Shown here: piece after piece, positions 15,055 through 39,259 of the stretch
How the letters are laid out: each line of letters begins with the position of its first letter
Numbering within the stretch: the first letter of the stretch is position 1
Assembly (NCBI RefSeq): GCF_009931435.1
Contig: NZ_CP043414.1
Source: Escherichia coli
Lineage (GTDB): Bacteria; Pseudomonadota; Gammaproteobacteria; Enterobacterales; Enterobacteriaceae
Direction: 5' to 3' (one strand)
Length of the DNA stretch: 64,000 nucleotides
Notes under the pieces: generated by a model
Told to the model about the DNA's origin: nothing
The model's database searches: none
What the model saw: the letters and a program-made list of their open reading frames with translations, nothing else
Program-made: the position numbers and the translations under genes

Positions 15055-15245
15055 GGAAAACATGTCGGATGCGGCGTAAACGCCTTATCCGACCTACGGT
15101 TTGCATCGTTGCAGGCCTGATAAGACGCGGCAAGCGTCGCATCAGGCAACGGCAGTCGGATGCGGCGCAGGCGCCTTATTCGACCTACGGTTTGTGTCGT
15201 GTAGGCCTGATAAGACGCGGCAAGCGTCGCATCAGGCATTACAAG
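15055..15245. repeat. BIME: tandem array of about four REP units
   Basis: repeated gatgcggcgtaaacgccttatccgacctacgg / gcaggcctgataagacgcggcaagcgtcgcatcaggca units. Confidence 0.9.
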
Positions 15246-19764: not shown

Positions 19765-19768
19765 TTAC

Positions 19769-19803
19769 AGGCGTCGCAGCAAGAATAGAGCTGCAACGCC
19801 TAC
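19769..19803. terminator. hairpin shared by convergent rsmI and agaI (likely bidirectional terminator)
   Basis: aggcgtcgcag...ctgcaacgcct inverted repeat in the ~50-bp gap. Confidence 0.5.
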
Positions 19804-19813
19804 ACCGGGCGAT

Positions 19814-20581
19814 TTAACGACGACACATCTCATCAATCATGCATGTGAAATAGTTATGCAGCCATAAAAACGAAGCCGGGATAGCGGTAGAGACTTTAGC
19901 CGTGAGAAAACGTTCTGTCGCATCCTGCTTTCCTTCGCCAGTCACCAGTAGCAAAACTTCGCGGGTATTGAGAATATCCTTCAGGCCTAAGGTGATCCCA
20001 CGAGTCACGGGGCGACCCGCGGTTTTTAACATCTCATGTTGCTGTGTTCTGGCATCAAGTTGACTGATATGGCAGGCCGGTTGCAGGCTTTCTCCCGGTT
20101 CGTTCAGCCCAAGATGACCGTTTTTCCCCAATCCGAGAACGCATAAATCCAGACCGCCTTTGCGCGCAATCAGGTTCGTTACCCGTTCGCACTCTGTCTC
20201 ATTTATCTCTTCGGAGCGAAAGCTGATGAGCTGGTCTTCACGTAGCCCCAGCGGCTGCACGATATGCTGTTGAAGGAAAGTTTCGCAGGTGCCAGGCATC
20301 GTTAATGGCAGATCCACCCATTCGTCGAGCTTCACGAAGGTGAGCTGGCTGACATCAACCTGCTGCTGGTGGATTTTTTCTACCAGATAATGATACGTCA
20401 GTAATGGCGTGGCTCCGGTCGCCAGGCAAATCACGGCATCCGGTTTGCTACGGATCACGGCCAATAAATATTCGCTGGCACGTTCACTTAACGCCGTATA
20501 GTTTTCAACTTGTTGAAGGGTTTGCACAGGATGAAATTCCTTTAGTAAAGAGGCACCACCAGACGCAGTGCCTCGTTCCAT
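19814..20581 (-). CDS. agaI: galactosamine-6-phosphate deaminase/isomerase (NagB family)
   Basis: 255-aa ORF, last gene of agaS-kbaY-agaBCDI; NagB-like; true start may be a few codons downstream. Confidence 0.85.
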   Translation of the reverse strand: MERGTASGGASLLKEFHPVQTLQQVENYTALSERASEYLLAVIRSKPDAVICLATGATPLLTYHYLVEKIHQQQVDVSQLTFVKLDEWVDLPLTMPGTCETFLQQHIVQPLGLREDQLISFRSEEINETECERVTNLIARKGGLDLCVLGLGKNGHLGLNEPGESLQPACHISQLDARTQQHEMLKTAGRPVTRGITLGLKDILNTREVLLLVTGEGKQDATERFLTAKVSTAIPASFLWLHNYFTCMIDEMCRR

Positions 20582-21373
20582 TTACAAAATGCCGAATGCG
20601 GAACAAACAATAGAGAGCACAAAAGTCACGCCGATTAACAGCACCGGATGCGCTTTTTTCACCCGCAGGAAGTAATACATCAGCAGGGTATAGGCCATCG
20701 GTAAAATGTTCGGGAAGACTTTATCGAAGAAATCCTGCTGCAGGGCGACGCTGTGGGTACTGTCGATCGCAAACGATGTCACCACGTTAATATGCACATA
20801 CGAAGCGATCAGCCCGCCGATTACCGTGATCCCGAGGATGGTTGCCGAACGAGCAATCATCTGCGAGTTCTCTCGCACTTTATCGATCGCCTTCACGCCG
20901 ACTGAATAACCGACGTGGGTCCAGCCGACGCGCAGGAAGAAGATAAGCAGGTAAACGGCGAAAAATAGAATCGGCCCCAGCAAGTTTCCCTGGCTGGCAA
21001 ATGATGAGCAAATTCCCGCCATAATCGGCAATAAGGTAAACCAGAAAATCGCATCGCCAATCCCGGCGATTGGGCCAAACAGTGCCACTTTGAGGCCTTT
21101 AATGGTGTCGCGGTTTTCTCCTTTTTCTTCCATCGAAATTAATAACCCCATCAGGAATCCGACCAGATTCGGGTGGGTATTAATAAATTCGAGGTTATCT
21201 TTCATCGCCGCGCTTAGGCCCGGTTTGTCGTCCTTATAAATCTTTTTCAGGATCGGCAACATCGCCCAGGTAAAACCGCCCGCCTGCATCCTTTCGTAGT
21301 TAAAGCTTGCTTGTAGCAGTGACGAACGAAAGCCCAGACGGGTGATATCTTTTTTACTGATTTCAGATCCCAT
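20582..21373 (-). CDS. agaD: PTS mannose-family EIID component (galactosamine-specific), 263 aa
   Basis: ORF 20582..21520; start set at MGSEISKKDITRLGFRS, giving 11-nt overlap with agaC. Confidence 0.88.
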   Translation of the reverse strand: MGSEISKKDITRLGFRSSLLQASFNYERMQAGGFTWAMLPILKKIYKDDKPGLSAAMKDNLEFINTHPNLVGFLMGLLISMEEKGENRDTIKGLKVALFGPIAGIGDAIFWFTLLPIMAGICSSFASQGNLLGPILFFAVYLLIFFLRVGWTHVGYSVGVKAIDKVRENSQMIARSATILGITVIGGLIASYVHINVVTSFAIDSTHSVALQQDFFDKVFPNILPMAYTLLMYYFLRVKKAHPVLLIGVTFVLSIVCSAFGIL

Positions 21374-22166
21374 TGCTGTAGTCCTCTTCTTCATTTTTAC
21401 TGGCAACGGGCTGCGGTTGCGCTTGCTGCCGGGATTTCGCATTGAAAAACTCATACACCGCAAAGCCTGCGCCCAGTACGGCAACCGGCAACAGGTTGCT
21501 GACCTGGATGTAGCAAACAAACAGGAAACCGGCGATCAGGTAAGGGATATATTGCGCTTTGAACATTACGCGCAGCAGCAAGCCAAAACCAACGGCAGGC
21601 AGAATACCGCCAGCCACTTCAAAGCCGTGGGTCAGCCAGGCGGGCATCGCTTTCACCAGCGCCTGCATCGCCCCTTGCGCCAGGTAAGTACAGAGGAAAG
21701 CAATCACCGCATACGCTGAAGCGACGATGAGCATCGTTGTCCAGTTAAGTCGGGAAAACGCTGCTGTATCCGCCTCTTTCGCACAATTATCAGCTTTGGT
21801 CATGAATAATGAGAAAGCGGAATAGAAGAACAGAATGACGTACTGCATTAACAAACTAAACGGCAGACCAAGACCAATTGCCGTTTTGGCATCGACGCCC
21901 GTAGACCATGCAATGACGGTGGTCATCAGACCCGCCATAATTGGGTTGGGCGGCTGAACACCACCTGCGGGGGTTAATCCGGCGAAAGCCAGTTCTGTCA
22001 GGCCACCGGTAATTAAGCCAATCTGAATATCACCGAGAATAGCACCTGTAAGGGTACAAACGATTATCGGGCGGAATAAAAATAAGGCTTCCAGCCAAAA
22101 ATCAATCCCCAGAACGAAAACTAACGCCGCCAGGGATAATCCCTGAATTAGGGTTATTTCATGCAT
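21363..22166 (-). CDS. agaC: PTS mannose-family EIIC component (galactosamine-specific)
   Basis: 267-aa membrane ORF MHEITLIQGLSLAALVF... Confidence 0.88.
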   Translation of the reverse strand: MHEITLIQGLSLAALVFVLGIDFWLEALFLFRPIIVCTLTGAILGDIQIGLITGGLTELAFAGLTPAGGVQPPNPIMAGLMTTVIAWSTGVDAKTAIGLGLPFSLLMQYVILFFYSAFSLFMTKADNCAKEADTAAFSRLNWTTMLIVASAYAVIAFLCTYLAQGAMQALVKAMPAWLTHGFEVAGGILPAVGFGLLLRVMFKAQYIPYLIAGFLFVCYIQVSNLLPVAVLGAGFAVYEFFNAKSRQQAQPQPVASKNEEEDYSNGI

Positions 22167-22204
22167 TTTTATTACCTCAAACCAGTATTAAGGCGATTTT
22201 AAAT

Positions 22205-22681
22205 TTAGTCAGGGATTTGTTCTTTTTGATCGCCGGGGACGTCCTGAATAAAAATATTCACACCGCGTTGTTTAATAAAGCGTAAGTCCGCGAGATCTTG
22301 ATCGTCGATATAAACTTTACTGCTGATTTGCTTTTTACCTTCCGAGAAATGCATATTGCCGACGTTGACATCTTTCAGGTCAATGCCACCTTCTATCAAT
22401 TTACGTACCGTTTGCGGCGTACGGCAAATCAAGAAGATTTTCTGATGCGGTGCAGCTTTGCCGATGACGTTAATGGTTTTTTCGATAGTAAAGAAACGAA
22501 TGCCAAAGCCGTAGGTTTCCGCGGTAATACCCATTAATTTTTGTTGAATATCATCGTTAGCGACAACATCATCCACGACTACCAGCAGATTTGCACCGAT
22601 GGTAGATGTCCAGGTCACACCAACCTGACCGTGAACCAGACGGTTATCAATACGGGTTAAGAGAATATTTGGACTGCTCAT
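22205..22681 (-). CDS. agaB: PTS mannose-family EIIB component (galactosamine-specific)
   Basis: 158 aa; RIDNRLVHGQV phospho-His region. Confidence 0.88.
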   Translation of the reverse strand: MSSPNILLTRIDNRLVHGQVGVTWTSTIGANLLVVVDDVVANDDIQQKLMGITAETYGFGIRFFTIEKTINVIGKAAPHQKIFLICRTPQTVRKLIEGGIDLKDVNVGNMHFSEGKKQISSKVYIDDQDLADLRFIKQRGVNIFIQDVPGDQKEQIPD

Positions 22682-22847
22682 TGTGTAATCCTCACCATAA
22701 AGTTGAATAATATAATTTTTTTAAATATATTATTGTTGCGATATTTTACTGATGTATTTATTAAGGTTTAGTTATCTCCTTTACCATTAAGGCACTCCCC
22801 GATATTAATCGGGAAGTACATTGGGATAAATCATAAAAAACTAATGA

Positions 22848-23720
<873 letters not shown>

Positions 23721-24875
23721 TTATGCCTGCCACGGATGAATGATTACGCCTTGCACCACGCGGTTAACGGTGCCGCTGGCTGATGGGGTATCCGGCGTAT
23801 TGCCCATATGCAGCGACTGCATCAGTGCAAACGTCTGGGCGTACATCAGGAAGCAAAATGCCTGCTCAACGTCGATAAAGTGACGTGACGGCGGCAGGAT
23901 GATATGTGGACCGGCGGTAATAACGTCGTTGCCTTCCGCGGCGATGGCGATTACGCGCATTGCCTGGTTGTCACGGCGGAGTTCTGCCAGCAGATCAAGA
24001 TCATACTGACGCGTATAGGGGTGGCTGGAGACAAACACCACCACCAGCGTTTCGTTATCGACCAGCGATTTCGGGCCATGACGGAATCCGGTCGGGGAAT
24101 CATAAAAGGCCGCCAGTTTACCCGCCGTCAGTTCCAGTACTTTCAGCGCCGACTCGCGTGCTGCGCCCTGTAAGCCACCGCTGCCGAGATAAACGATCCG
24201 TTTCCACGGTGCGTAACCAAACACACCTTCGCTGAAATCGCCCAGTGAGGTCAGGATCGCCTGGCAACGATCCGCTACGTCGCGGAAGGTCTGGCTATTG
24301 ATTGTCTCAGGTGCGAAAACCGCGAGGCAGCTGGCCATCATAGTGGTAATGCTGCTTGTCATTGCAAAGCCGCGATCGTGCGTTTCTGCGGGCATCAGCA
24401 GGGCAAACGCGTTGTCGCTGTTGATCGCGTTTTGGTAAAGAGCGCCCGCTTCGTTGCAGGTGATCGGCAGGTGATAGCATTCCGGTACAAACTGATTCGC
24501 CAGTTCCACGGCGGCGACGCTTTCCGGGCTGTTGCCAGATCGACCGAAGGAGATCAACAGCAGTGGATGAGCTGGATTCAGGTAGTCCATCGGATTAGTG
24601 ACCAGATCGGTGGTCGGTACGGCGCTGAAGTTTTTACCGGTATGGCTGGCGAGCCACGGCGCGATGATATCACCGATAAATGCCGAGGTTCCGGCTCCGG
24701 TCAGGATGATCCGCAGATTCTCTTTGCGCAGTAACGGTTCAAGGAAGTTATTGAGCGCGGAACGTAGCGCGTCGATGTTGGTGAGTGAACGGATCCATGC
24801 GCGAGGCTGATGGCGGATCTCTTCTTCAGTCCATGTGCCGGTGGTGGCGGCCGCTGGGGTGTAATTTTCTGGCAT
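23721..24875 (-). CDS. agaS: SIS-domain sugar-phosphate isomerase/deaminase AgaS
   Basis: 384 aa, two SIS domains; first gene of the agaS operon. Confidence 0.88.
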   Translation of the reverse strand: MPENYTPAAATTGTWTEEEIRHQPRAWIRSLTNIDALRSALNNFLEPLLRKENLRIILTGAGTSAFIGDIIAPWLASHTGKNFSAVPTTDLVTNPMDYLNPAHPLLLISFGRSGNSPESVAAVELANQFVPECYHLPITCNEAGALYQNAINSDNAFALLMPAETHDRGFAMTSSITTMMASCLAVFAPETINSQTFRDVADRCQAILTSLGDFSEGVFGYAPWKRIVYLGSGGLQGAARESALKVLELTAGKLAAFYDSPTGFRHGPKSLVDNETLVVVFVSSHPYTRQYDLDLLAELRRDNQAMRVIAIAAEGNDVITAGPHIILPPSRHFIDVEQAFCFLMYAQTFALMQSLHMGNTPDTPSASGTVNRVVQGVIIHPWQA

Positions 24876-24924
24876 AACTCAATCCTTAGTCTGATGAACT
24901 TGACTTCCGGCATTGCAGGCTTCG

Positions 24925-25050
24925 CTTGCCTTTCGTTTCATTTCACTTGGTGATTCGTTTCGTTGATTAAAATCTATAGAAAAGAAATCGAAAGTTCAAT
25001 GGAGAAAAAAGAAATAAAACGAAATTTGTGATCGTTGAAAGAAAAGACAA
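24925..25050. promoter_or_regulatory. agaS promoter region with clustered AgaR-operator-like TTTC/GAAA-rich motifs
   Basis: ctttcgtttcatttc, attcgtttcgttg, gaaatcgaaag, gaaataaaacgaaat seen upstream of agaS. Confidence 0.55.
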
Positions 25051-25084
25051 GGGAAGATTAAAGGATTGCGTGATAACGTCGCTA

Positions 25085-25150
25085 TGTGTACCGATTGCTG
25101 GAAGCGGCGTACCGTAGAGCGGATAAGACGCGCCAGCGTCGCATTCGACA
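25085..25150. repeat. REP-like palindromic element
   Basis: gcggataagacgcgccagcgtcgcat unit between agaS promoter and agaA 3' end. Confidence 0.5.
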
Positions 25151-25225
25151 CCACTGCACAGATTAAAACGAAAGAAAAAGAAAGGCCTTACGGGGGAAGT
25201 GAAGGCCCAATAAAGGAGCAAACCA

Positions 25226-26359
25226 TCAAAACGAAGCTAATTGACCCTGAATCCAGATTTGTTGCACATGCAGTCCGCTATTCAGCGCAACGACGCTGGC
25301 GCGTTTGCCCGGTTTAAGTGATCCCAGAACACCATCAACACCCAGCATACGCGCCGGATGCAGCGATGCCATATGGATGGCTTCCGCAGGCGTTACGCCC
25401 GTCAACTCGACCATGTTGCGCACTGCCGCATCGACAGACAGCGTACTGCCCGCCAGCCCACCGGACGCGGTACGGACAACGCCACCGTGCATCTGCACTT
25501 CTTCACCACATAACGTATAGCGACCATCCGGCATCCCGGCTGCCTGCATCGCGTCGGTGATGAGCACGATTCTCTCTTTCGCACAGCAACAACACAGCGA
25601 CATCGCCGCCGGATGAACATGATGCCCATCGGCTATCAGTTCCAGCCAGGCGCGCTTGTCCGTTAAACCCGCGCCAACCATTCCCGGTTCGCGGTGATGT
25701 AATCCTGTCATCCCGTTATAGCAATGCACCAGGCCGTCTGCGCCAGCATCAAATGCGGCGCGGGTTTGTTGCCAGGTTGCTGCGCTATGTCCCAGCATTA
25801 CCCGCACGTTCTGCTGTTTAAGATGACGAATGGCTTGTAACGCGCCCGTTTTTTCCGGTGCCAGCGCCACCACGCGCAAGGTATGCCGTGAAACAGCAAT
25901 CAATTGATCCAGCTCGGCAATTTCCAGCTCGCGAAACAGCTCCGGCGGATGTGCGCCTTTATTCTGCGGCGTGAAGTACGGCCCTTCGAGATAACTCCCC
26001 AGCACTTGCGCACCAGGTCCACCGCGCTGGCAGCGTAGCGCAATACGTTCCAGCGCCGCATGAATGGTATTAAGCGGCGCGGTTACGGTAGTCGGCAACC
26101 AACTGCCGACACCTTCCCGTGCCTTGTGCATTGCCAGCTTGTCGAGCGCATCCGGCGCGTCATCCATAACATCAACGCCCGCACCACCGTGTACATGGGT
26201 ATCGATATAAGCGGGGCAGAGCAGTTCCGCATCGCGTTCAGTCACGCCCACTGGAATCGGTTCGATTGCTGCGATTACACCGTCAGCAATACACAACTGA
26301 TGGTCATCGAGCCATCCCTCTTCAGTCAGCAGCCTTCTGGCGCGCAGAACGTGTGTCAT
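25226..26359 (-). CDS. agaA: N-acetylgalactosamine-6-phosphate deacetylase (NagA family), apparently full length
   Basis: ORF 25226..26380; start set at MTHVLRARRLL so that ATG overlaps agaF stop (ATGA); metal-binding H-x-H near N-terminus. Confidence 0.85.
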   Translation of the reverse strand: MTHVLRARRLLTEEGWLDDHQLCIADGVIAAIEPIPVGVTERDAELLCPAYIDTHVHGGAGVDVMDDAPDALDKLAMHKAREGVGSWLPTTVTAPLNTIHAALERIALRCQRGGPGAQVLGSYLEGPYFTPQNKGAHPPELFRELEIAELDQLIAVSRHTLRVVALAPEKTGALQAIRHLKQQNVRVMLGHSAATWQQTRAAFDAGADGLVHCYNGMTGLHHREPGMVGAGLTDKRAWLELIADGHHVHPAAMSLCCCCAKERIVLITDAMQAAGMPDGRYTLCGEEVQMHGGVVRTASGGLAGSTLSVDAAVRNMVELTGVTPAEAIHMASLHPARMLGVDGVLGSLKPGKRASVVALNSGLHVQQIWIQGQLASF

Positions 26360-26790
26360 ATTCCTTCCTCGACCGGACATTCTTCATGGCAGCGGCCTAA
26401 CTCGTCTACCAGACTGGTCAGCCCACGGTGTCCACACTCCAGCGCCTGCACACGGAATTCTTCACCGCTTAACCCTTCGCGCTCCAGCACCATTTCCAGT
26501 AACAGTTGCAAATTGGTGCCGGTGATCACTTCATAGCCCGGTTTTTGCATCGCCAGCGTTGAAGCCACGCGAAACGGTGTGCCGCCCAGCAAATCTGTCA
26601 GAAAAACAATGCCGTCTTCACAATCCAGTTTGGCAATGGCTTCTTCAAGCTGCGATGTAAGCAGCGCAGTGCTTGAGGTTTCCGGAAAATCAATGGCGAT
26701 AAACTGCGACTGCTCGCCGAGGATTTGCTTCATTGCTTTTTCCATGCCGCTGGCAAATCCGCCATGCCCTGTCAAAATAATACTTAACAT
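26356..26790 (-). CDS. agaF: PTS mannose-family EIIA component
   Basis: 144 aa; MLSIILTGHGGFASG... Confidence 0.85.
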   Translation of the reverse strand: MLSIILTGHGGFASGMEKAMKQILGEQSQFIAIDFPETSSTALLTSQLEEAIAKLDCEDGIVFLTDLLGGTPFRVASTLAMQKPGYEVITGTNLQLLLEMVLEREGLSGEEFRVQALECGHRGLTSLVDELGRCHEECPVEEGI

Positions 26791-26807
26791 CTAATACCTC
26801 ATTGTAT

Positions 26808-27692
26808 TTAAAGGAAATGACAGAATTTACCGACGATGCCAAGAACCACGGTAACCGCAATCAGGCGCAGCGGACTCCAGCCGCGGCGTACCAGCCAGAA
26901 CATGGTCAGGGTGTAGACCAGCGGTAAGAAGGCAGGCATCAGTTTGTCGATAACGTCAGCCTGCAGCTTAACCACTGCATCGCCCGCCGTGATTTCCAGC
27001 GTGGTGCTTAAACGAACATAGGTTGCCACCAGCGCGCCGATCACCGTCATCCCAACGATAGACGCTGCATGGCCGACTTTTTTGGTATTCGCTTTAATGA
27101 GTGGGATCGCCGCCACGCCCATGCGGTAAGCATAATGCGCCAGACCAAAACGCAGCCCCAGGTGTACCACGTTAAACAGCACAATAAACACGACTGCGCC
27201 AAGAATAGAGCCTTGCAATGCCAGACTGGCACCAATCCCGCCACAAATCGGCAGTAACGTTAGCCAGAACATGGCATCGCCAATCCCACCGAGCGGCGCA
27301 CCGACGGCAATTTTGGTGCTCTGAATACTGTTAACGTCCTGCTTAGAACGCTCCATCGCGAGGATAATGCCAATAACAAACGTCACCAGAAACGGATGGG
27401 TATTGAAGAAACCCATATGCCCCTTCATGGCGCGCGCCAGGTCGCGTTTATTAGTGTGGATCTTTTTCAGAGCAGGCAGCAGACCGTACAACCAGCCGGA
27501 AGCCTGCATACGTTCGTAGTTAAAAGACGCTTGTAACAGCATGGAACGCCAGGCGACGCGGTTGATATCTTTTTTTGTTAGCTCCGCGCCAATGCTCTGA
27601 TCTTCATACACGTTTTCATTGACGCCTGTCAGTAGTGTTTCTTCGTTTTCACTGACGTTCGGCAGGGTAGTTTGATTAGATGCCATCTTCAA
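26808..27692 (-). CDS. agaE: PTS mannose-family EIID component (N-acetylgalactosamine-specific)
   Basis: 294-aa membrane ORF, paralogous to agaD. Confidence 0.85.
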   Translation of the reverse strand: MKMASNQTTLPNVSENEETLLTGVNENVYEDQSIGAELTKKDINRVAWRSMLLQASFNYERMQASGWLYGLLPALKKIHTNKRDLARAMKGHMGFFNTHPFLVTFVIGIILAMERSKQDVNSIQSTKIAVGAPLGGIGDAMFWLTLLPICGGIGASLALQGSILGAVVFIVLFNVVHLGLRFGLAHYAYRMGVAAIPLIKANTKKVGHAASIVGMTVIGALVATYVRLSTTLEITAGDAVVKLQADVIDKLMPAFLPLVYTLTMFWLVRRGWSPLRLIAVTVVLGIVGKFCHFL

Positions 27693-28455
27693 ATTCCTCT
27701 TTCTGTGCCGCAGGTTGAGTCGGTTCAGGAGATTTACGCAGCAGGTCGATCAGCGCCATCGCCAGCGCGGCGGCAGCAATAGCCAGCACCGGTAACTTGA
27801 GCCAGGCGGCGGCAACGAAGCCCAGGATGAAGTAGGGGATATAGACGTTTTTCATCATGATTTTCAGCAGCACGGCAAAACCGATTGCTGGCATGATGCC
27901 GCCCGCGACGCCAAGGCCGTCGATTAACCGTTGCGGCAGGACATCAATGATGGTTTTTGCATGCTCCGCGCCGAAGTAGATAGGCAGGAAAGCGCAGAGA
28001 AAATAGAACGTGCCGAGTGCCAGCAATGCCAGATAGTTCACGCGTTCAATGCCGCGAGTATCGGCGTTCTCCGCCATCCGGTCGCAGCGGGACATCACGC
28101 CAGACATCACCGAGAACAGGAAGGTAATCCCCATCTGTACTGCGACAGCGAAAGGTACGGCGACACCGACCGCGACATCCGGTTTCACGCCAGTAGTAAT
28201 GGCAAACGCCGTGCCGACGATAGTTCCGATAATCACGTTAGGCGGCTGTGCGCCCGCCAGCGGTGCCAGCCCCATCCACACCAGTTCCAGCGTACCGCCG
28301 GTTAAAATACCGGTATGCAGATCGCCAAGCACCAACCCAACTAACGGGCCGAGGACCACCGGGCGGTGCATATGGGTTAGGCCGTTAAACATATCCAGGC
28401 CAGCGATAAAGGCGATAATGCCCAACGCAAATGCCTGCAACAGACTGATTTCCAT
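27676..28455 (-). CDS. agaW: PTS mannose-family EIIC component (N-acetylgalactosamine-specific), full length
   Basis: 259-aa membrane ORF, paralogous to agaC. Confidence 0.85.
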   Translation of the reverse strand: MEISLLQAFALGIIAFIAGLDMFNGLTHMHRPVVLGPLVGLVLGDLHTGILTGGTLELVWMGLAPLAGAQPPNVIIGTIVGTAFAITTGVKPDVAVGVAVPFAVAVQMGITFLFSVMSGVMSRCDRMAENADTRGIERVNYLALLALGTFYFLCAFLPIYFGAEHAKTIIDVLPQRLIDGLGVAGGIMPAIGFAVLLKIMMKNVYIPYFILGFVAAAWLKLPVLAIAAAALAMALIDLLRKSPEPTQPAAQKEEFEDGI

Positions 28456-28465: not shown

Positions 28466-28939
28466 TCAAAGTAATTTAAAGAGGTCCACAGCAGGCTCTG
28501 TCGGGACGCCCTGAACGAAGCATTCCACCCCAGCGGCTTTCAGGTCGTTAAATGCTGCGATATCGCCCGCATCCACAGAAACCGTTTTGGCGATTTGTTG
28601 CTTGCCATTGGCGTAGTGCATATTGCCAACGTTAATGCGATTCACCGGAACGCCACCTTTCACCAGCGTCAGGAAATCGGCAGGTGTTTTACAAACCAGC
28701 AGGATTTTCTGTCGATCGGCGGCGCGATGAATGTTGTCGATCACTTTTTGCAGCGTCCAGAAACGTACGGCGATCCCTTCTGCCAGCACCATTTCCATCA
28801 GGTTTTGTTGTACCGGATCTTCGGCAACCTCATCATTGGCTACCAGCACCAGATTTGCCCCCGCAAATCCGACCCACTGAACGCCGACCTGACCGTGAAT
28901 CAAGCGTTCATCAATCCGGCTTAAAACAATATTTGGCAT
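28466..28939 (-). CDS. agaV: PTS mannose-family EIIB component (N-acetylgalactosamine-specific), 157 aa
   Basis: ORF 28466..28975; start set at MPNIVLSRIDERLIHGQ. Confidence 0.85.
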   Translation of the reverse strand: MPNIVLSRIDERLIHGQVGVQWVGFAGANLVLVANDEVAEDPVQQNLMEMVLAEGIAVRFWTLQKVIDNIHRAADRQKILLVCKTPADFLTLVKGGVPVNRINVGNMHYANGKQQIAKTVSVDAGDIAAFNDLKAAGVECFVQGVPTEPAVDLFKLL

Positions 28940-28961: not shown

Positions 28962-30242
28962 TTATTGGCCTTCACAGGCTGTGTGGTACTGCGCCAGGAT
29001 GTCCTGAATATGGTTGATAATGAGTTCCCGTGGCGTTGGCTGCAGCTCGCCGGAGCGAACTTTCACGTATTGCAGCGGCAGGTACTGACTGATGAGCGGC
29101 AGCGGAATTGGCGCATCCGCCAGGTTACGAACCAGATGAGCGAAAGCGTCATCAATCTGGCTGTCCGGCCAGTAATAGCGCACGCGATCCGAGTAGCTAT
29201 AACCACGCGCCAGACGACGCGCGTTGCCGTCACCGTGGTAGTGGCTTTGCCAGTATTCCGGGCGGTCGAGCATCACGTTTTCCAGCACCTGACGCAGACC
29301 GGAACAGGCTTTTGCTGGCACCAGTTCTTCTTCAATCGCCGCCAGAGAGAACAGAGCTTCACGCAGGGCGAAGGTCAGCGCTGGGCCAACTTTCAGAATG
29401 GCAAAGTGGTCAATCACCAGCTGGCGCAGCGATTGCGGCGTTTGGTAATCGGTAGAGTGCGCTTCGAAAATCAGCGTTTCGTAGTTTTCGACCATCTGGC
29501 TTAAGGCGGTCGCTTTAGCTGGCTGATAATCAATAACGTTGGTGTGATCGAATTCGACGCCGGGTTGTACCACCAGAGCAATGATGCGTGGCCAGATGGC
29601 ATTCAGACCTTGCTTTTCAAAGGCGTGACGATGGGCTTCCAGCGTGGCGCGGGCGGCATCCGGCGTAGTGACCGCCAGCTCGCTTAAGGTTTCATGCGCG
29701 CCGCCAGGTACCGGCACTTCGGTACCAATGACATACACCAGATCGGCTTCGCCAAAGTGTTCACGGCAGGTTTCTTCCGCGACTTTAGCCAGTCGGGCGG
29801 CGCGTTCAGCCACGATGTCATCGGTTAAGGGAACCGGATCGTCCTGACAGGACATGCTGCAATCAAGGTGAATTTTTTTGAATCCTGCCGCCACGTAGCT
29901 TTTAATCAAATCATCGGCATTGGCCATCGCCTGAGCTGCAGGCAGGTTTTGCCAGCGGTTTGGCCCCAGATGATCGCCACCCAGAATCAACGCGTCTTGT
30001 GGGAAATTCAATGAGTCGGCGAGCTGACAAACAAAGCCGCGAAAATCGGCGGGTGTCATTCCGGTATAACCACCGAACTGGTCCACCTGATTGGATGTCG
30101 CTTCAATCAGTAACGGTGTTTGGTTTACACTGGCGTAGCGGATTGCAGCTTCCAGCACCAGCGGGTGTGCGGAACAAACGGCATAAATCCCATTTGTTTT
30201 GCCCTCTTTGTGCTGCCTCACCATTTCTGTCAGATGTTTCAC
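28962..30242 (-). CDS. kbaZ: tagatose-bisphosphate aldolase non-catalytic subunit KbaZ (426 aa, GTG start)
   Basis: ORF 28962..30308; start set at in-frame GTG ([10 protein letters not shown]...); the longer ATG-initiated form would run into the operator region. Confidence 0.8.
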
Positions 30243-30314
30243 TTTCCTCTCCAGTTCAGATTGCTGCGATATTAATCTTTCGTTTTGTTTCAGTTGATAC
30301 TGCGTCATGGTGAG

Positions 30315-30478
30315 ATAAAAATAAAACGAAAGATAATAGTTTTCTGATCTGATTCACAAAAGAAACATAATGAAAGTCACTGAAACGAGAGTAGCTTGCG
30401 TCAATGGGCAAGGTGGGCTTGCATTTGCTCAATAGAAAGGCGTAAATAGGCAAAACGAAATGAAACGAAAGTTTTACG
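30315..30478. promoter_or_regulatory. divergent kbaZ / agaR promoter region with AgaR operator-like motifs
   Basis: aaataaaacgaaag and aacgaaatgaaacgaaag motifs in the intergenic gap. Confidence 0.6.
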
Positions 30479-30490
30479 AAAGGACTTACT

Positions 30491-31300
30491 ATGAGTAATA
30501 CCGACGCTTCAGGCGAGAAGCGAGTGACAGGCACCAGCGAGCGACGAGAACAAATCATTCAGCGCCTGCGACAGCAAGGGAGTGTGCAGGTTAACGATCT
30601 GTCGGCATTGTATGGCGTATCTACTGTGACGATCCGCAACGATCTGGCTTTTCTGGAAAAGCAGGGGATCGCTGTGCGGGCCTATGGCGGCGCGTTGATC
30701 TGCGATAGCACGACGCCGTCAGTCGAGCCATCAGTGGAAGATAAAAGCGCGCTGAACACTGCGATGAAACGCAGCGTTGCGAAAGCTGCCGTTGAGTTGA
30801 TTCAGCCAGGTCATCGGGTGATCCTCGATTCCGGGACCACCACGTTTGAGATTGCTCGTCTGATGCGCAAGCACACCGACGTAATTGCGATGACCAATGG
30901 TATGAACGTAGCCAATGCACTGCTGGAAGCAGAAGGCGTTGAACTTCTTATGACCGGCGGGCATCTGCGGCGTCAGTCGCAATCTTTTTACGGCGATCAG
31001 GCTGAACAATCGCTACAAAATTACCACTTTGATATGCTTTTTCTCGGCGTAGATGCGATCGATCTGGAGCGCGGCGTCAGCACGCATAATGAAGATGAAG
31101 CCCGTTTAAACCGTCGGATGTGCGAAGTTGCGGAACGGATCATTGTGGTCACCGATTCCAGTAAGTTCAACCGTTCCAGTTTACATAAGATCATTGATAC
31201 TCAACGTATCGACATGATCATTGTTGATGAAGGCATTCCTGCGGATAGTCTGGAAGGCCTGCGAAAGGCTGGGGTTGAAGTGATTCTGGTCGGGGAGTGA
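30491..31300 (+). CDS. agaR: DeoR-family transcriptional repressor of the aga operons
   Basis: 269 aa; N-terminal HTH (…[17 protein letters not shown]…) and DeoR sugar-phosphate-binding C-domain. Confidence 0.9.
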
Positions 31301-31589
31301 GAAATGGCGCCCGTAGCTCAACACGGATGTGTTCGGCGGGCATTGTTCACTGACCTTTTACAGCCTGTTTTCTGCTCAAATTAGAAACTTCAGCAAAGGT
31401 AATGCAAATGCATTATTAACAGCAGAAAGCGCCAGAACCAACGAAAAAAGAGAGCATGTTTCCCATTTTGCGAGGCGCTTTCCAAATCACCCGCTCAGTC
31501 CCCTCGCGTTGCAGTGCTAAAAGCACTATTTTGCAAATTTGTGACCTTCTTCACTCTCCCAAAAGGCGGTGATCTCACGGTGGGGATCC

Positions 31590-31815
31590 ACTTTCTGCTT
31601 TCGCTTTTCTGCCGTTAGCACTCGCTATTTCGGCATCTCTTCTTTTCACTTTTTCAGTTTGTCATTTTCATTTGCGGTCAACCGAAAGTTCTGGAGTCGA
31701 TTTTTCCAGGTTTCAACGCCGTTGTCGCGTTCACAAATTCACTTCTTTTCTTCTGATGTAATGCATTCAAAAGAAAATGAAAGCTGCAAAATGCAAGAAT
31801 GCAACGAAATACTTT
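31590..31815. promoter_or_regulatory. long leader of the second DeoR gene, rich in TTTC/GAAA repeats (candidate operator array)
   Basis: ctttctgctttcgcttttctgcc, tcttttcactttttcagtttgtcattttcatttgcgg, gaaaatgaaagctg; motif class resembles the aga operators. Confidence 0.4.
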
Positions 31816-31832
31816 TTCAGGGAGCGATAAAC

Positions 31833-32603
31833 ATGCTAGATAGCCTAAGACGCCGCGAACAAATCATTGATTTGTTATGTGCCCAGGGAAGCGTACGCGT
31901 TGAGCCGCTCAGCATCCATTTTGGTGTCTCATCGGTCACGATCCGCAATGACTTACGGTATCTGGAGCAAAAAGGTTGCGTCATGCGTTCCTATGGCGGT
32001 GCCGTGTTGAATCAACACTTTGCGCTCGACAGACCCTTGCAGGATAAAGATCGCCTTAATCGTGATGTTAAAGTGCGAATTGCCGAAAAAGCGGCCAGTT
32101 TTGTCAAAGATGGCGATACATTAATTATCGATTCTGGTTCAACGACCACGCTAATTCCCGCTTCGCTCAAAGGGCGTCGGGATTTAGTCGTCATGACGAA
32201 TGCCTTGAATATCGCCTGGGAAATGGCCAGTTTTGAACGGGTGGATGTTATGATCCTTGGTGGAAATGTTCGCCAGAGCGTCTACTCCCTGTATGGGCCT
32301 TCGGCAGAACAACAACTCCGGCAGTATCGCTTTGATAAGCTGTTTTTGGGCGTGGACGGCTTTTGCCTTGAAGCAGGGATTACCACACCACATCCGGGTG
32401 AGGCACATCTGAACCAGGTGATGTGCCAGGTTGCGCAGGAAATTACTGTTGTCGCGGACTCCAGTAAATTTGGCCGCAAAAGCTTCTGTATGATCGGTGA
32501 AGTGAGCGAGATAGATCGACTGATTACCGATAGCGGTATTCCGGAGAATTACAAAGCAGCATTAACGCAAATGGGTGTGGAAGTTGTGATTGCTGATGAG
32601 TGA
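31833..32603 (+). CDS. DeoR-family transcriptional regulator, AgaR paralogue (256 aa)
   Basis: ORF 31569..32603; start set at MLDSLRRREQIIDLL preceded by GGAG; alignable by eye with AgaR along its length (…VTIRNDL..LE.KG…YGGA…DSG.TT…FLGVD…). Confidence 0.8.
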   Translation: MLDSLRRREQIIDLLCAQGSVRVEPLSIHFGVSSVTIRNDLRYLEQKGCVMRSYGGAVLNQHFALDRPLQDKDRLNRDVKVRIAEKAASFVKDGDTLIIDSGSTTTLIPASLKGRRDLVVMTNALNIAWEMASFERVDVMILGGNVRQSVYSLYGPSAEQQLRQYRFDKLFLGVDGFCLEAGITTPHPGEAHLNQVMCQVAQEITVVADSSKFGRKSFCMIGEVSEIDRLITDSGIPENYKAALTQMGVEVVIADE

Positions 32604-32604
32604 G

Positions 32605-32642
32605 AAAATGTGGCTGGAGATAAACGTCGCCAGCCACATTAC
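32605..32642. terminator. bidirectional hairpin terminator between convergent DeoR gene and ROK kinase gene
   Basis: aatgtggctgg...ccagccacatt inverted repeat. Confidence 0.6.
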
Positions 32643-32647
32643 GTTAT

Positions 32648-33559
32648 TCAGGTTGCAAGTTCGATTTGCAGCAACGCCGCGCCTCGTACACCGCTCGTTG
32701 CTCCGTGAATCGCAGAAAATACGCGCGCAGGTTCCAGTCCAGGAAGAAGATAACGCGTCATAGCTTTCGGCAATAACGTGTAAATTTCTTTGAAGTTAGA
32801 CACACCGCCGCCAAGAACAAATGCATCTACGTCGAGAATATGCTGCAACTGTGCCAGCGTACAACCAACCATATCTATCCAGGCGCTAATGGTGGTGATG
32901 GCACTGGGAACGCCACGTTGATGATTTTCTAACAATGTCTCCATAGTGATTTGCTCACCGCTGAAATGCTTATGTAACCAGAGCAAGCCAGGACCGGACT
33001 GGTAGCGTTCCAGGCACCCTTGCAAACCGCAGCCGCATTGTAATTCAGGCAGGTTATAGCGCCGCGTAAATGTCGCCGGGAGCGGTAAATGGCCAAACTC
33101 GCAGGCCATACGGTTACGGCCACGGTACAACTGGCCATCAATAACTAATCCCCCGCCCATACCCGTGCCGATAATCGCGCCAAAGATCCGACTATATTGA
33201 CGAGCTTGATCGGTATGCGCTTCTGATAGGGCGAAGCAGCAGCAGTCATTATCCATTATTACCGGGCGGTTAAGGCGATTTGCCAGATCGGTTAACACCT
33301 GGCGTCCGGTCAGGCAGGGAACGTTAGAAGACAACAGTTTACCGGTGTGCCGATCCATAACGCCGGGCATCCCGATACCTATTTTGCCTTGCGTACCCGT
33401 GGCCCAGTCAGCGGTATCAATCAGAGACACAAATGTGGATAGAAAAAGCGCGTAATCCTGAACAGGCGTAGCTACCCGCTTGCGCCAGCAAATTTGTAAA
33501 TCCTGATCAAAGGCGACTATCTCTGTTTTGGTTCCACCAATATCAACACCGTAAAACAT
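32648..33559 (-). CDS. ROK-family sugar kinase (NagK-like N-acetylhexosamine kinase candidate), 303 aa
   Basis: N-terminal GVDIGGTK ATP motif; ROK zinc motif CGCGLQGCLERY; same length as the NagK family. Confidence 0.8.
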   Translation of the reverse strand: MFYGVDIGGTKTEIVAFDQDLQICWRKRVATPVQDYALFLSTFVSLIDTADWATGTQGKIGIGMPGVMDRHTGKLLSSNVPCLTGRQVLTDLANRLNRPVIMDNDCCCFALSEAHTDQARQYSRIFGAIIGTGMGGGLVIDGQLYRGRNRMACEFGHLPLPATFTRRYNLPELQCGCGLQGCLERYQSGPGLLWLHKHFSGEQITMETLLENHQRGVPSAITTISAWIDMVGCTLAQLQHILDVDAFVLGGGVSNFKEIYTLLPKAMTRYLLPGLEPARVFSAIHGATSGVRGAALLQIELAT

Positions 33560-33577
33560 CGCTCATCTCCTTTGGTT

Positions 33578-34834
33578 TCACAGCACAACCAGGGTATTTT
33601 CCTTGCGAGCGCGTTCGGCGGCAAAGACCATTAAATGACTTTCGAGCGATTCATCTGGTCCTGAAAGGATCATCGCTCGATCGTCAGCCATCACGGCATG
33701 GATAAAGCTGTCCATCAGATAGTAATCACCACCACCGTGCCCTCCCATTTGGGTGTGAGTGCCTGCGTTTTTCTCTTCAACGGTGTAAATAGTTTCCTGG
33801 TCGGTGAGAAAATCAAAACACCGAATGGTGTTGCCATCGCCTTCCAGATAACCTTTCGAACCGAAAACTCGGGTTTTGCGATCCTCCATTTTCGTAAAGG
33901 CTGTCATTGTAAAAGTGACGCTCTGCTGATGCGCAAACTGCATGTTTACCACTTGATGATCAACAACATCGTTATCGCAGCAATAAACACAGCGACCATA
34001 GGGGCCGTCACGCAGGGCCTGACGAATATTCTCTTCAGTAGGATTTGGTGTTAACACGTGGCGAAAGTGAAACGTACATTTATGGGCTTCGCCAGCATAA
34101 ATTTTGCATGCGGACCACGGGCAGGTCGCTTCTGCCTGGCAATCGAGACAGCGTTCGGCTGCGCCTTCAGGTTGGTTTTGTTTTACAAAATGGTTGAGCC
34201 CGCCAAATGAGCTAACGGTTTTACAGTTGTCTCCCATGATGTAGCGGATCCAGTCCAGATCGTGGCAGGACTTTTGTAACAACATAAATGATGATTCAGC
34301 CTCGTTGCGCCAGTTACCACGCACAAAAGAGTGTGCCTGGTGCCAGTAACCGACGGGTTCGAGATGCTGCATACTGATAATGTCGCCAATGATGCCGCTG
34401 TCGAGTAAGGATTTGAGTTTTTGTGTATATCGGGTGTAACGAAGAACGTGTGCGACGGCTAATAAGACATTATTGCGTTTGACGGCATCAATGATAATGC
34501 GGCAATCGTGCTCTGTTGGCGCGAGCGGTTTTTCCAACAGAATGTGATAACCGAGATCGGCAAAAGCGACGGCCGGATCTCTATGCATATTGTCTTGCGT
34601 ACAAATAAGTACAGCATCAGCCATTTTTGGCCGAGCAGCAGCCTCTTTCCAGTTGCTAAAAATATTATCTGTCGGGATCGTATGCCGGGACACAACTTGC
34701 TCGCGGTAAGCCTCTCTAGGTTCAGCAACACCTACCACTTGCATTCTGTCCGGATGCTCAAGGGCATAGCGGGAATATATTTCTCCACGTGCGCCTGCAC
34801 CTATTACTAAAACAGTGACTTTATTTTTACTCAT
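33578..34834 (-). CDS. Gfo/Idh/MocA-family NAD(P)-dependent oxidoreductase with Cys-rich insert
   Basis: N-terminal Rossmann VLVIGAGARG and EKP motif (LLEKPLA); internal Cys cluster CLDCQAEATCPWSACK ... CVYCCD. Confidence 0.75.
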   Translation of the reverse strand: MSKNKVTVLVIGAGARGEIYSRYALEHPDRMQVVGVAEPREAYREQVVSRHTIPTDNIFSNWKEAAARPKMADAVLICTQDNMHRDPAVAFADLGYHILLEKPLAPTEHDCRIIIDAVKRNNVLLAVAHVLRYTRYTQKLKSLLDSGIIGDIISMQHLEPVGYWHQAHSFVRGNWRNEAESSFMLLQKSCHDLDWIRYIMGDNCKTVSSFGGLNHFVKQNQPEGAAERCLDCQAEATCPWSACKIYAGEAHKCTFHFRHVLTPNPTEENIRQALRDGPYGRCVYCCDNDVVDHQVVNMQFAHQQSVTFTMTAFTKMEDRKTRVFGSKGYLEGDGNTIRCFDFLTDQETIYTVEEKNAGTHTQMGGHGGGDYYLMDSFIHAVMADDRAMILSGPDESLESHLMVFAAERARKENTLVVL

Positions 34835-34876
34835 ATAAAGAAATACCTTTCTGATAAATTCATCTTAATTGCTACG

Positions 34877-35635
34877 TTATAAATTACGAAAACTAACAAG
34901 ATGAAATCCGTGTTTTTCAATCGCATATTTGAGTGACGGTGTAGTCAGAACCGTAAGTTCTTCCAGCCGTTGATAGCAGTAACTGCTCGACATTAAGTGG
35001 TTATCTACAAATCCAGGGTGACACATAATTTCCAGCGATTTTTCATCACGTTTTATGGCGCTATCGAGGAGTGATAAAAAAAAGTCTTCTGAAATATTAT
35101 TATCGTAGAAATTACTGCTGAATCCCTCACTACTTTTGGCATCCAGCGAATCGATTTTTTTCTCTCGCAGGACAGAATGGTCTATACGTAATGGTAAATT
35201 TTTCTCACGCGCGAACCGCGCGACAACGGGATAAACCTGCGGGAGCATATGAACGCTGTGATGGCTGTCTAAATGGGTGGGCTCCCGTTTAAATACATCA
35301 ATAAAACGTTGATATTGAGAATTCAGTTCCTGTTCAATTTCACCCGTGTTTAATTGCCCTTGCTCCGCGACATCCCAGATCCATTTACCTAATTGGCCTG
35401 CGCGTACCAGCGAAGGCATATCCGTTAAGGCAGCGCCATAGCTCAAAACAAAATGTAACCCGACGCCGAGCTGTGGGGTTTCGGCACTTAAAGAGGCAGC
35501 ATGATCAATTGCCGGAGCATTCATCATCGCAGTTGTTGAGCGAACGACACCATTTCGTACTGCCTCGATAATTCCATAATTAATACCTTTACTTAGTCCA
35601 AAGTCATCCGCATTCACAATTAATAAGCGTTGCAT
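34877..35635 (-). CDS. YdjC/ChbG-family carbohydrate deacetylase
   Basis: MQRLLIVNADDFGLSKGINYGIIEA... and HLDSHH metal-site motif typical of the ChbG/YdjC family. Confidence 0.85.
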   Translation of the reverse strand: MQRLLIVNADDFGLSKGINYGIIEAVRNGVVRSTTAMMNAPAIDHAASLSAETPQLGVGLHFVLSYGAALTDMPSLVRAGQLGKWIWDVAEQGQLNTGEIEQELNSQYQRFIDVFKREPTHLDSHHSVHMLPQVYPVVARFAREKNLPLRIDHSVLREKKIDSLDAKSSEGFSSNFYDNNISEDFFLSLLDSAIKRDEKSLEIMCHPGFVDNHLMSSSYCYQRLEELTVLTTPSLKYAIEKHGFHLVSFRNL

Positions 35636-35647
35636 AAGGCGTCCTTG

Positions 35648-37000: not shown

Positions 37001-37077
37001 GTTACTTCCATACTCAATATTAAATTGACTTGTGATGCCATGGTTTTATCTAAACGCTGGCATGATGAAGTGTGCTA

Positions 37078-38439: not shown

Positions 38440-38508
38440 AAAAATATCCTTATATACCGATTAATGTATCACTGCGACTTTGGTTTTATTAATATCCTGT
38501 TGCTATGG

Positions 38509-38826
38509 TTACTTTTGCTCTTTTTTTATTATGGCGATAGCTGATTTTAGAACACCTAAGCCATCAATTTTTCCATATAACATTGAATCAATAACTTCCA
38601 CTGGCTTTCCTGGTAATAAGCTTTGGATCTCTGATTGCATGTAAGCAATTTGAGGTCCCAATAATATAACATCGGCTTCCGGCCCTTTCTCTGCGGCAAC
38701 AGATTCGGAGAATGCTTCGATAATTACTGGCACATCATATTTTATCGCCTGCACTTTCATTTTTGACACCAGCAGTGATGTTGACATTCCCGCTGAACAA
38801 AATAAGTATATTTTTTTCTTTTCCAT
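38509..38826 (-). CDS. PTS lactose/cellobiose-family EIIB component (ChbB-like), 105 aa
   Basis: ORF 38509..39042; start set at [23 protein letters not shown] (phospho-Cys motif), preceded by GGAG. Confidence 0.8.
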
Positions 38827-39059
38827 AGGGACTCCAGATATATTACGTAATAATATATTTGTCATGCCATGAATGGCATATGAGGCGACTTTAATTAAAA
38901 AGGCACGGATGTTTATATTGATTTCCTGAATGTCGTCTTTTGGTATTAATCTCAAAAATTTCAGGAGCCATTGAATAATCTGGTTTATAGGATTGAATGT
39001 CAAGAGAGTGAAATTGTGGGCGTGTTGTAATAAAAATAGCACGGCTTTCGGTAGGTTTC

Positions 39060-39165
39060 TTTTTTAGCGGAATGAAAAGTACAGGCAAAATGGTAATTGA
39101 ATAAATTAACGTTTTTTCAATAGATTACGTTTTTTTCTGCCTACAGGAATGAAAAAAACAACAAT
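39060..39165 (-). promoter_or_regulatory. putative promoter/operator region of the EIIB-led operon with two GGAATGAAAA repeats
   Basis: gcggaatgaaaagtacagg and acaggaatgaaaaaaacaac about 75 bp apart in AT-rich DNA upstream of the EIIB start. Confidence 0.35.
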
Positions 39166-39245: not shown

Positions 39246-39259
39246 TTCATGCAAGGCCG

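Follow-up and report, generated by a model that had tools for sequence, protein, structure and literature searches.

The closest described counterparts of the locus studied here are the aga/gam regulons of the E. coli strains C, O157:H7 and K-12. E. coli C serves in this report as the experimentally characterised Aga+ Gam+ reference. O157:H7 is Aga+ but Gam-, owing to an amber codon in agaC, and in O157:H7 spinach-outbreak isolates a single missense change, AgaF G91S, suffices as an Aga- lesion (PMC3668189). The Aga- Gam- phenotype of K-12 has been ascribed to a 2.3 kb deletion (PMC3668189, PMC9628945, PMC2808357), which makes K-12 the exception among E. coli. The two substrates, N-acetylgalactosamine (GalNAc) and galactosamine, are mucin-derived sugars, and their use has been linked to gut colonisation.

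The window, i.e. the whole stretch of 64,000 nucleotides that was analysed, almost certainly carries at positions 25226-28455 the central part of the kbaZ-agaVWEFA operon of this Escherichia regulon, undeleted and functional-looking. All 13 aga/gam genes are present without stops or frameshifts, in the order agaR, then kbaZ-agaV-agaW-agaE-agaF-agaA, then agaS-kbaY-agaB-agaC-agaD-agaI, and the regulon is colinear with those of R32_14_1F, ATCC 8739 and REL606. An earlier sequence-only reading had called the segment part of a complete Aga/Gam pathway; this is right at the genotype level, since the remaining nine genes of the regulon are intact as well.

Gene boundaries and identity of agaW, agaE, agaF and agaA

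The segment is filled exactly by four consecutive genes (Table 1). All four have lengths divisible by three, and re-translation gave no internal stop in any of them, in agreement with the initial claim that they are intact and in frame. The 294 residues first given for AgaE require a TTG start at 27692, as in the mechanical open reading frame, whereas the ATG at 27686 yields 292 residues. The Shine-Dalgarno sequence AGAGGA lies 8 nt upstream of this ATG and only 2 nt from the TTG, and the ATG is also the PGAP choice in four genomes. ATGA-type overlaps had been proposed for two gene pairs: the one between the agaF stop and the agaA start holds, but agaW and agaE share an overlap of 11 nt (ATGGCATCTAA). 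The longest open reading frame for agaA starts at an ATG at 26380 and has 384 codons; the ATGA overlap with agaF implies the other start, giving 377 residues. The coordinates of kbaZ and agaV agree with those that PGAP assigned in the colinear genome R32_14_1F.

Table 1. Position and description of the aga/gam features in the window
Feature	Position	Strand	Description
agaI, agaD, agaC, agaB, kbaY, agaS	19814-24875	minus	second operon, six of six genes intact
agaA-agaS intergenic region (agaS promoter region)	24876-25225		CTTTCGTTT repeats, read directly
agaA	25226-26359	minus	ATG to TGA, 377 aa; NagA-family GalNAc-6-phosphate deacetylase
Interval absent in E. coli K-12	25775-28079		2305 bp; blastn of window against MG1655 and junction reading
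agaF	26356-26790	minus	ATG to TGA, 144 aa; PTS EIIA common to Aga and Gam transporters
agaE	26808-27686	minus	ATG to TAA, 292 aa; PTS EIID
agaW	27676-28455	minus	ATG to TAA, 259 aa; PTS EIIC, N-acetylgalactosamine-specific
agaV	28466-28939	minus	intact; second gene of kbaZ-agaVWEFA operon
kbaZ	28962-30242	minus	intact; first gene of kbaZ-agaVWEFA operon
kbaZ-agaR divergent control region	30243-30490		AgaR-operator-like CTTTCGTTT repeats
agaR	30491-31300	plus	DeoR-family repressor of regulon

The three PTS proteins score above the curated cut-offs of their NCBIfam equivalog models: AgaW matches NF040757 with 410.8 bits (cut-off 300) over profile positions 1-249 of 249, AgaE matches NF040760 with 617.6 bits (cut-off 500) over positions 1-292 of 292, and AgaF matches NF040761 with 218.1 bits (cut-off 130). 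Mannose/fructose/sorbose IIA, IIC and IID subfamily models of the mannose-family PTS also match AgaF, AgaW and AgaE, respectively, and the E. coli NagA model of the GlcNAc pathway also matches AgaA. Against the equivalog models of ManXYZ and E. coli NagA, however, the scores stay below the cut-offs, while the specific Aga models pass. AgaF contains both His9 and Gly91, the former of which we take to be the phosphorylation site, by analogy with the EIIA-Man family.

That agaA is full-length, as first read, is borne out by its match to TIGR00221 (nagA) with 286.7 bits (cut-off 225.65). Over its whole length the protein can be aligned with NagA enzymes of known structure, and its best relatives of solved structure are all GlcNAc-6-P deacetylases. 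It contains the stretches DTHVHGG, LEGPY, LGHS, HCYNGM and TDAM, presumably the metal and catalytic motifs of the amidohydrolases. A preference of AgaA for GalNAc-6-P over GlcNAc-6-P is putative; by genetics, AgaA and NagA are interchangeable (PMC3668189).

Antisense open reading frames of 80-158 aa within the segment were set aside as frames of the kind that GC-rich coding sequence commonly produces, given the strong, synonymous-only divergence of the sense genes. An Rfam scan of 25226-28455 revealed no RNA families.

Control regions and second operon

Two control regions flank the kbaZ-agaVWEFA operon. The region between kbaZ and agaR contains five matches to CTTTCGTTTY, three of them exact, together with the inverted repeats I4 and I5, and the region upstream of agaS also contains five, two of them exact. 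The 64 kb window has five exact matches in all, every one of them within these two regions. CTTTCGTTTY served as the AgaR operator consensus, and the repeats are putative AgaR operators. A crude scan for a simple sigma-70 consensus found no gene-strand promoter upstream of kbaZ or agaS, and its terminator-like matches lay inside coding sequence. The second operon codes for the deaminase, the aldolase, the Gam-specific PTS and AgaI, which has 255 residues instead of 251 and an altered C-terminus.

The K-12 deletion

Alignment of the window with MG1655 leaves a gap of 2305 bp. This is the 2.3 kb deletion known from the literature, and it substantiates the first description of a K-12 lesion that truncates agaW and agaA and removes agaE and agaF. 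The missing interval comprises agaW codons 126-259, the whole of agaE and agaF, and agaA codons 1-195. At the K-12 junction agaW codon 125 is joined to agaA codon 196, so that agaW' consists of 125 native codons followed by 8 out-of-frame codons and a stop; the window lacks this junction and retains all 2305 bp between the two breakpoints. In E. coli C the breakpoints lie within copies of GC(T/G)GCGACC, of which GCGACC is exact, and their placement is ambiguous by the few bases of these copies. The flanking aga genes of MG1655 are colinear with those of the window and 96.5% identical, but MG1655 has the pseudogenes agaW' and 'agaA where the window has both genes whole. Brinkkotter et al. 2000 is reportedly the primary paper on this deletion.

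Comparison with E. coli C, B and O157:H7, and predicted phenotype

In the most probable scheme of the pathway, AgaF (EIIA) would pass phosphate to AgaV (EIIB), and AgaW and AgaE (EIIC and EIID) would take up GalNAc as GalNAc-6-P; AgaF would also serve the AgaBCD galactosamine transporter. AgaA would deacetylate GalNAc-6-P to GalN-6-P, AgaS would convert this to tagatose-6-P by deamination and isomerisation, and KbaY/KbaZ would cleave the product once tagatose-6-P has been phosphorylated. AgaR would repress the promoters upstream of kbaZ, agaS and agaR. These biochemical roles are predictions drawn from published work on E. coli C and O157:H7, the sources for pathway roles and for the K-12 and O157 phenotypes being PMC3668189, PMC9628945 and PMC2808357. 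PtsI, HPr and tagatose-6-P kinase, which the pathway also requires, are encoded outside the window.

E. coli C (ATCC 8739) matches the window in its 13 genes, in their order and orientation and in the geometry of starts and stops, at about 4% nucleotide divergence, and E. coli B likewise carries all 13. The AgaW, AgaR, AgaV and AgaD proteins are identical between E. coli C and the window, agaW differing by 22 synonymous changes only and agaR by 33. The agaE gene has 32 synonymous changes and one non-synonymous change (I224V), agaA has 47 and nine, AgaF has two substitutions (Q54K and C86Y) and KbaZ has ten. The C-terminus of the window AgaI is unlike that of its E. coli C counterpart. Over the four genes of the segment, 119 synonymous codon differences stand against 12 non-synonymous ones, an excess which indicates continued purifying selection.

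In O157:H7 strains EDL933 and Sakai agaWEFA is intact, as in the window, and the strains are Aga+ (PMC3668189), whereas amber mutations in codon 8 of agaC and codon 72 of agaI render them Gam-. Both sites are sense codons (Gln8 and Gln72) in the window, and AgaF has Gly91, so that none of the known O157:H7 lesions (AgaF G91S, agaC Q8 amber, agaI Q72 amber) occurs there. O157-type strains had been named as comparators for an Aga+/Gam+ background, a poor choice given the agaC amber codon and Gam- phenotype of O157:H7 (PMC3668189). Since all 13 genes are intact and these lesions absent, the host is predicted to be Aga+ Gam+.

The genes could be intact and the pathway nonetheless silent or impaired, through missense changes (AgaF Q54K and C86Y, or those in AgaA) or through regulation, leaving the host Aga- and/or Gam-. 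AgaF G91S sets a precedent, as this one missense change abolishes Aga use in O157:H7 isolates (PMC3668189), and the 12 non-synonymous differences from E. coli C offer candidates. Against this, the preponderance of synonymous changes speaks for continued purifying selection, the clade I strain R32_14_1F has identical AgaW, AgaE and AgaF proteins, none of the known lesion sites is mutated, the AgaR protein does not differ from that of E. coli C, and operator-like repeats have been kept. We regard a silent pathway as distinctly unlikely, and a working Aga+ Gam+ pathway remains the prediction.

Descent of the segment and lineage of the host

The gene neighbourhood is a mosaic: a 7.8 kb island that abuts agaR is shared by just 3 of 5426 E. 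coli genomes, no yraHIJK operon lies beside agaI, and strain N96 has part of its aga cluster replaced. Such features could suggest that the segment is itself a mosaic patch, regained or exchanged through horizontal transfer or through recombination with DNA of another enterobacterium. However, the segment differs from E. coli C at 134 of 3230 nt (95.9% identity), like the aga flanks (96.5%) and the surrounding 43 kb (95.6%), neither composition nor synteny breaks at 25226 or 28455, and the nearest AgaA proteins from outside Escherichia are at most 86% identical. Horizontal replacement was rejected as very improbable because the divergence of the segment matches that of its flanks.

The first reading had further assigned the window to a C-, B- or O157-type background. 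Such an origin in E. coli sensu stricto would fit the 13 intact genes in the same order that E. coli C and B share with the window, but identity to E. coli C is only about 95.6% over 43 kb, and to most of the 5426 genomes it is about 96% or below. About 17 genomes, including that of the published clade I strain 2013C-4282, are 98-98.7% identical to the window, and R32_14_1F is among these relatives. Within cryptic clade I, average nucleotide identity (ANI) exceeds 98.3%, as against about 96% to E. coli sensu stricto (PMC10100065), thresholds that refer to whole genomes, whereas ours is a local identity from one window. Moreover, the yraHIJK and prlF-yhaV genes of strains C, B and K-12 are missing from the window, which has the chb-like island instead of these flanks of E. 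coli C, and the two O157:H7 amber codons are missing as well. A sensu stricto source of C, B or O157 type is exceedingly improbable on these grounds; the sequence matches a divergent, cryptic clade I-like Escherichia lineage, which would make the probable host distinct from K-12, C, B and O157.

An exact 36-mer with six lineage-marker SNPs (CACCACGCGCAAGGTATGCCGTGAAACAGCAATCAA) had no match among the GTDB species representatives, so that this collection contains neither the source genome nor a representative nearly identical to it. In a protein-seeded scan the nearest non-coli representatives were E1V33 (94.6%), E. whittamii (92.4%), MOD1-EC7003 (91.0%) and E. albertii (about 90%). All four are farther from the window than E. 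coli itself and were ruled out as its source.

Distribution of the intact segment

At least 80% of the segment is found in 4929 of 5426 complete E. coli genomes (about 91%), and the K-12 junction in 371 of them. Across the Enterobacterales the gene order agaWEFA is conserved: at 52 of 62 species-representative loci, agaW-agaE-agaF immediately precedes agaA. The intact segment is the common ancestral state, real but ordinary and already known; since about 91% of complete E. coli genomes have it and it extends across the Enterobacterales, it is the default and no discovery. It therefore carries little strain information beyond 'not K-12': it rules out a K-12 derivative as the source, and matters little beyond annotation. 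The practical yield lies in revised boundaries for the genes, precise breakpoints for the K-12 deletion, and a host that appears clade I-like and has an unusual island adjoining the regulon.

The adjoining chb-like island

This island of 7.8 kb (31420-39259) directly adjoins agaR and, with just 3 carriers among 5426 E. coli genomes, is rarer than the intact aga segment. It codes for a second AgaR-type repressor, a ChbB/ChbC-like PTS and a GH4 6-phospho-glycosidase, and further for a ChbG-like deacetylase, a Gfo/Idh/MocA oxidoreductase and a NagK-like kinase. It is a rather doubtful speculation that the aga/gam regulon forms half of a larger amino-sugar locus, in which the island would take up and split an N-acetylated disaccharide, possibly a GalNAc-containing one, and so feed the Aga pathway. 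The adjacency of agaR, agaR2, ROK and oxidoreductase genes is also found in several Citrobacter species, which is compatible with a functional linkage rather than a chance insertion.

The agaW-agaE-agaF-agaA segment

The agaW, agaE, agaF and agaA genes follow each other on the minus strand and fill the segment exactly, as seen both in the ORF listing and on re-translation. All gene lengths are divisible by three, and re-translation of 25226-28455 revealed no internal stops in any of the four genes. This bears out the sequence-only reading that they are all present and in frame, with neither a frameshift nor a premature stop found. The lengths it had given for AgaW and AgaF (259 and 144 residues) were reproduced, but the 294 residues given for AgaE are obtained only when the ORF is extended mechanically to a TTG at 27692. 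Initiation at the ATG two codons further on gives a 292-residue form whose match to the NCBIfam AgaE model spans positions 1-292 of 292; annotations of four other genomes use this ATG. ATGA-type overlaps had been proposed at two junctions; the agaF stop/agaA start is indeed of this type, whereas the agaW/agaE junction is an 11-nt overlap (ATGGCATCTAA). A Shine-Dalgarno-like purine-rich stretch could be read directly 5' of all four starts. The longest agaA ORF (384 residues, upstream ATG) does not have the start that produces the ATGA overlap. The agaA 3' end and the agaA-agaS spacer each contain one arm of a perfect 14-nt inverted repeat (ACGCGCCAGCGTCG / CGACGCTGGCGCGT), the spacer arm lying within REP-like sequence (GCGACGCTGGCGCGTCTTATCCGCTCTACG).

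Features of the aga/gam region and its surroundings (bits with curated cut-off in brackets; codon changes relative to E. coli C as synonymous/non-synonymous)
Feature	Position	Strand	Start/stop	Length (aa)	Family model	Codon changes
agaW	27676-28455	-	ATG/TAA	259	NCBIfam NF040757 equivalog, 410.8 (300)	22/0
agaE	26808-27686	-	ATG/TAA	292	NCBIfam NF040760 equivalog, 617.6 (500)	32/1
agaF	26356-26790	-	ATG/TGA	144	NCBIfam NF040761 equivalog, 218.1 (130)	18/2
agaA	25226-26359	-	ATG/TGA	377	TIGR00221 nagA, 286.7 (225.65)	47/9
agaI	19814-20581	-
agaR	30491-31300	+
agaR2 (second AgaR-type DeoR repressor)	31833-32603	+			NF040755, above cut-off
14-nt inverted repeat	25128-25141, 25291-25304
CTTTCGTTTY sites in the agaA-agaS intergenic region	24930-25184
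CTTTCGTTTY sites in the kbaZ-agaR control region	30277-30471
Breakpoint direct repeat	28072-28080, 25775-25783
Site lacking yraHIJK	19765-19860
Island between agaR and garD	31420-39259
TTTC-type repeats	31590-31830
yhaC, yhaB, tdc operon	45964-55195
Rfam matches	405-519, 748-919, 15114-15185, 45521-45897

All four proteins score above the curated cut-offs of their families. Mannose-PTS and E. coli NagA models were also matched, with scores under their own cut-offs, and AgaA and solved GlcNAc-6-P deacetylases align over their full lengths. The segment can be aligned without gaps to that of the experimentally characterised E. coli C (ATCC 8739, NC_010468), with 119 synonymous and 12 non-synonymous codon changes in total, which strongly suggests that the four genes are maintained by purifying selection. 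All testable defining features of the AgaW, AgaE, AgaF and AgaA families, and of an E. coli C-type regulon, are present. The intact segment is real, and the essentials of its first interpretation are correct and already known.

The deletion in K-12

A blastn comparison with MG1655 (3274000-3294000) gave two colinear blocks that are adjacent in K-12 and separated in the window. At the K-12 junction, agaW sequence is kept through ...CGCTGCGACC (window 28080), after which agaA sequence resumes with TGGCAAC... (window 25774). This implies that the DNA missing from K-12 is equivalent to window 25775-28079, i.e. 2305 bp, comprising agaW codons 126-259, the whole of agaE and agaF, and agaA codons 1-195. 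The K-12 agaW' product consists of 125 identical residues followed by LATNPRRI and a stop. The earlier claim of a K-12 deletion truncating agaW and agaA and removing agaE and agaF was thus confirmed, and the same event, described as a 2.3 kb deletion, underlies the Aga- Gam- phenotype of K-12 (PMC3668189; PMC9628945). The window does not carry this allele, as 25775-28079 is retained.

In E. coli C a GC(T/G)GCGACC motif, with GCGACC exact, is found at both breakpoints (GCTGCGACC / GCGGCGACC). The agaA-side copy in the window is degenerate (GCAGCAACC), which reduces the microhomology available in this lineage for a recurrence of the deletion.

Regulon, control regions and predicted pathway

All 13 aga/gam regulon genes are intact and in canonical order, as also annotated in E. 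coli B REL606, in agreement with the complete pathway proposed initially: agaR on the plus strand, and on the minus strand kbaZ, agaV, agaW, agaE, agaF and agaA, followed by agaS, kbaY, agaB, agaC, agaD and agaI down to 19814. In addition, the sites of known natural lesions (AgaF Gly91, agaC Gln8 and agaI Gln72; PMC3668189) are wild type.

AgaF (EIIA), AgaV (EIIB) and AgaW/AgaE (EIIC/EIID) import GalNAc as GalNAc-6-P, AgaF being shared with the galactosamine transporter AgaBCD; GalNAc-6-P is deacetylated by AgaA or NagA, GalN-6-P is deaminated and isomerised to tagatose-6-P by AgaS, not AgaI, tagatose-1,6-bisphosphate is cleaved by KbaY with KbaZ, and AgaR represses the regulon (PMC3668189). 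An Aga+ Gam+ phenotype is predicted from the gene content.

Exact matches to CTTTCGTTTY number five in the 64 kb window and are confined to two places, three in the kbaZ-agaR control region and two in the agaA-agaS intergenic region; a repeat finder placed the sites of both regions into families. We take this motif to be the AgaR operator consensus, and the sites to be putative operators. With at most one mismatch, 27 matches were found in the window against 11.2 expected.

The window lacks the yraHIJK fimbrial operon that K-12, C and B have between rsmI and agaI, and its AgaI has a different C-terminus, longer by four residues (...WLHNYFTCMIDEMCRR vs ...WLHSNFICLINT). Rfam matches at gathering threshold were to the S15 leader, SraG sRNA, naRNA4 (CssrE) and RNase P RNA, with none in the aga region.

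Distribution of the intact segment

Among 5426 complete E. coli genomes, 4929 hold 80% or more of the segment at a single location, 371 have a K-12-type junction in one piece (among those listed, laboratory strains of K-12 size) and 110 show no match at all. In GTDB species representatives encoding an AgaA relative, agaW-agaE-agaF is located directly upstream of agaA in 52 of the 62 loci with enough upstream DNA to judge, ranging over Escherichia, Citrobacter, Kluyvera, Enterobacter, Klebsiella, Raoultella, Yersinia, Buttiauxella, Serratia and Morganella. By these counts the intact segment is not unusual but represents the ancestral and common state, with K-12 as the exception.

A natural loss different from the K-12 deletion is found in Salmonella enterica subsp. 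diarizonae and arizonae (loci L012 and L013), in which agaR, kbaZ, agaA, agaS and kbaY are present and the agaVWEF PTS genes are absent between kbaZ and agaA. In strain N96 (L002, 1467-6488), the closest match to the segment, malX-like and malY-like genes, together with genes for an MBL-fold hydrolase and a LysR regulator, stand in place of agaB, agaC, agaD and agaI. All that is left of the replaced part is a PTS IIB gene remnant, so the regulon varies in its Gam half within the lineage of the window.

Lineage of the window

Nucleotide identity of the window is 95.6% to E. coli C (43 kb of colinear DNA), 96.6% to K-12 and 98.0–98.7% to about 17 genomes labelled E. coli; it is 94.6% to Escherichia sp. 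E1V33, 92.4% to E. whittamii, 91.0% to Escherichia sp. MOD1-EC7003 and about 90% to E. albertii. The 98.0–98.7% group includes 2013C-4282, a published cryptic clade I strain; ANI reported for clade I is >98.3% among its members and >95.9% against E. coli sensu stricto (PMC10100065). Clade I strain R32_14_1F is colinear with the window, nearly coordinate for coordinate. These comparisons point to Escherichia cryptic clade I, and not E. coli sensu stricto, as the probable source. The proposed C, B or O157-type background holds for C and B as genotype analogies, fails for O157 on galactosamine, and in no case names the actual background. The yhaC-yhaB-tdc block has 92.4% identity to E. coli C with many gaps, clearly more divergent than the adjacent 96–98% blocks.

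An island between agaR and garD

A more unusual feature than the intact segment is a 7.84 kb insert between agaR and garD, where K-12, C and B have the prlF-yhaV toxin-antitoxin pair. Besides agaR2, this island encodes a NagK-like ROK kinase, a Gfo/Idh/MocA oxidoreductase, a ChbG-like deacetylase, a GH4 6-phospho-glycosidase, a ChbC-like EIIC and a ChbB-like EIIB; no EIIA gene was seen within it. Only three of the 5426 complete E. coli genomes carry it (R32_14_1F, 99.7%; RMDEC465, 99.6%; GF4-3, 92.4%).

The agaR2, ROK kinase and Gfo/Idh/MocA genes also adjoin agaR, at the position they have in the island, in several Citrobacter, with 77–91% protein identity, so their adjacency to the aga cluster is conserved outside Escherichia; the loci stop short of where PTS and GH4 genes would show. 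The loci concerned (L022, L041, L051, L011, L047, L064 and L070; positions about 1700-4730 in each) come from Citrobacter werkmanii, C. portucalensis, C. amalonaticus, other Citrobacter and an Enterobacteriaceae isolate, and in L064 the ROK kinase and oxidoreductase alone were matched at this level. Finally, many TTTC-type repeats (CTTTCTGCTTTCGCTTTTC, CTTTTCACTTTTTCAGTTTGTCATTTTCATTT) are found upstream of agaR2; they resemble the CTTTCGTTT repeats of canonical AgaR control regions.
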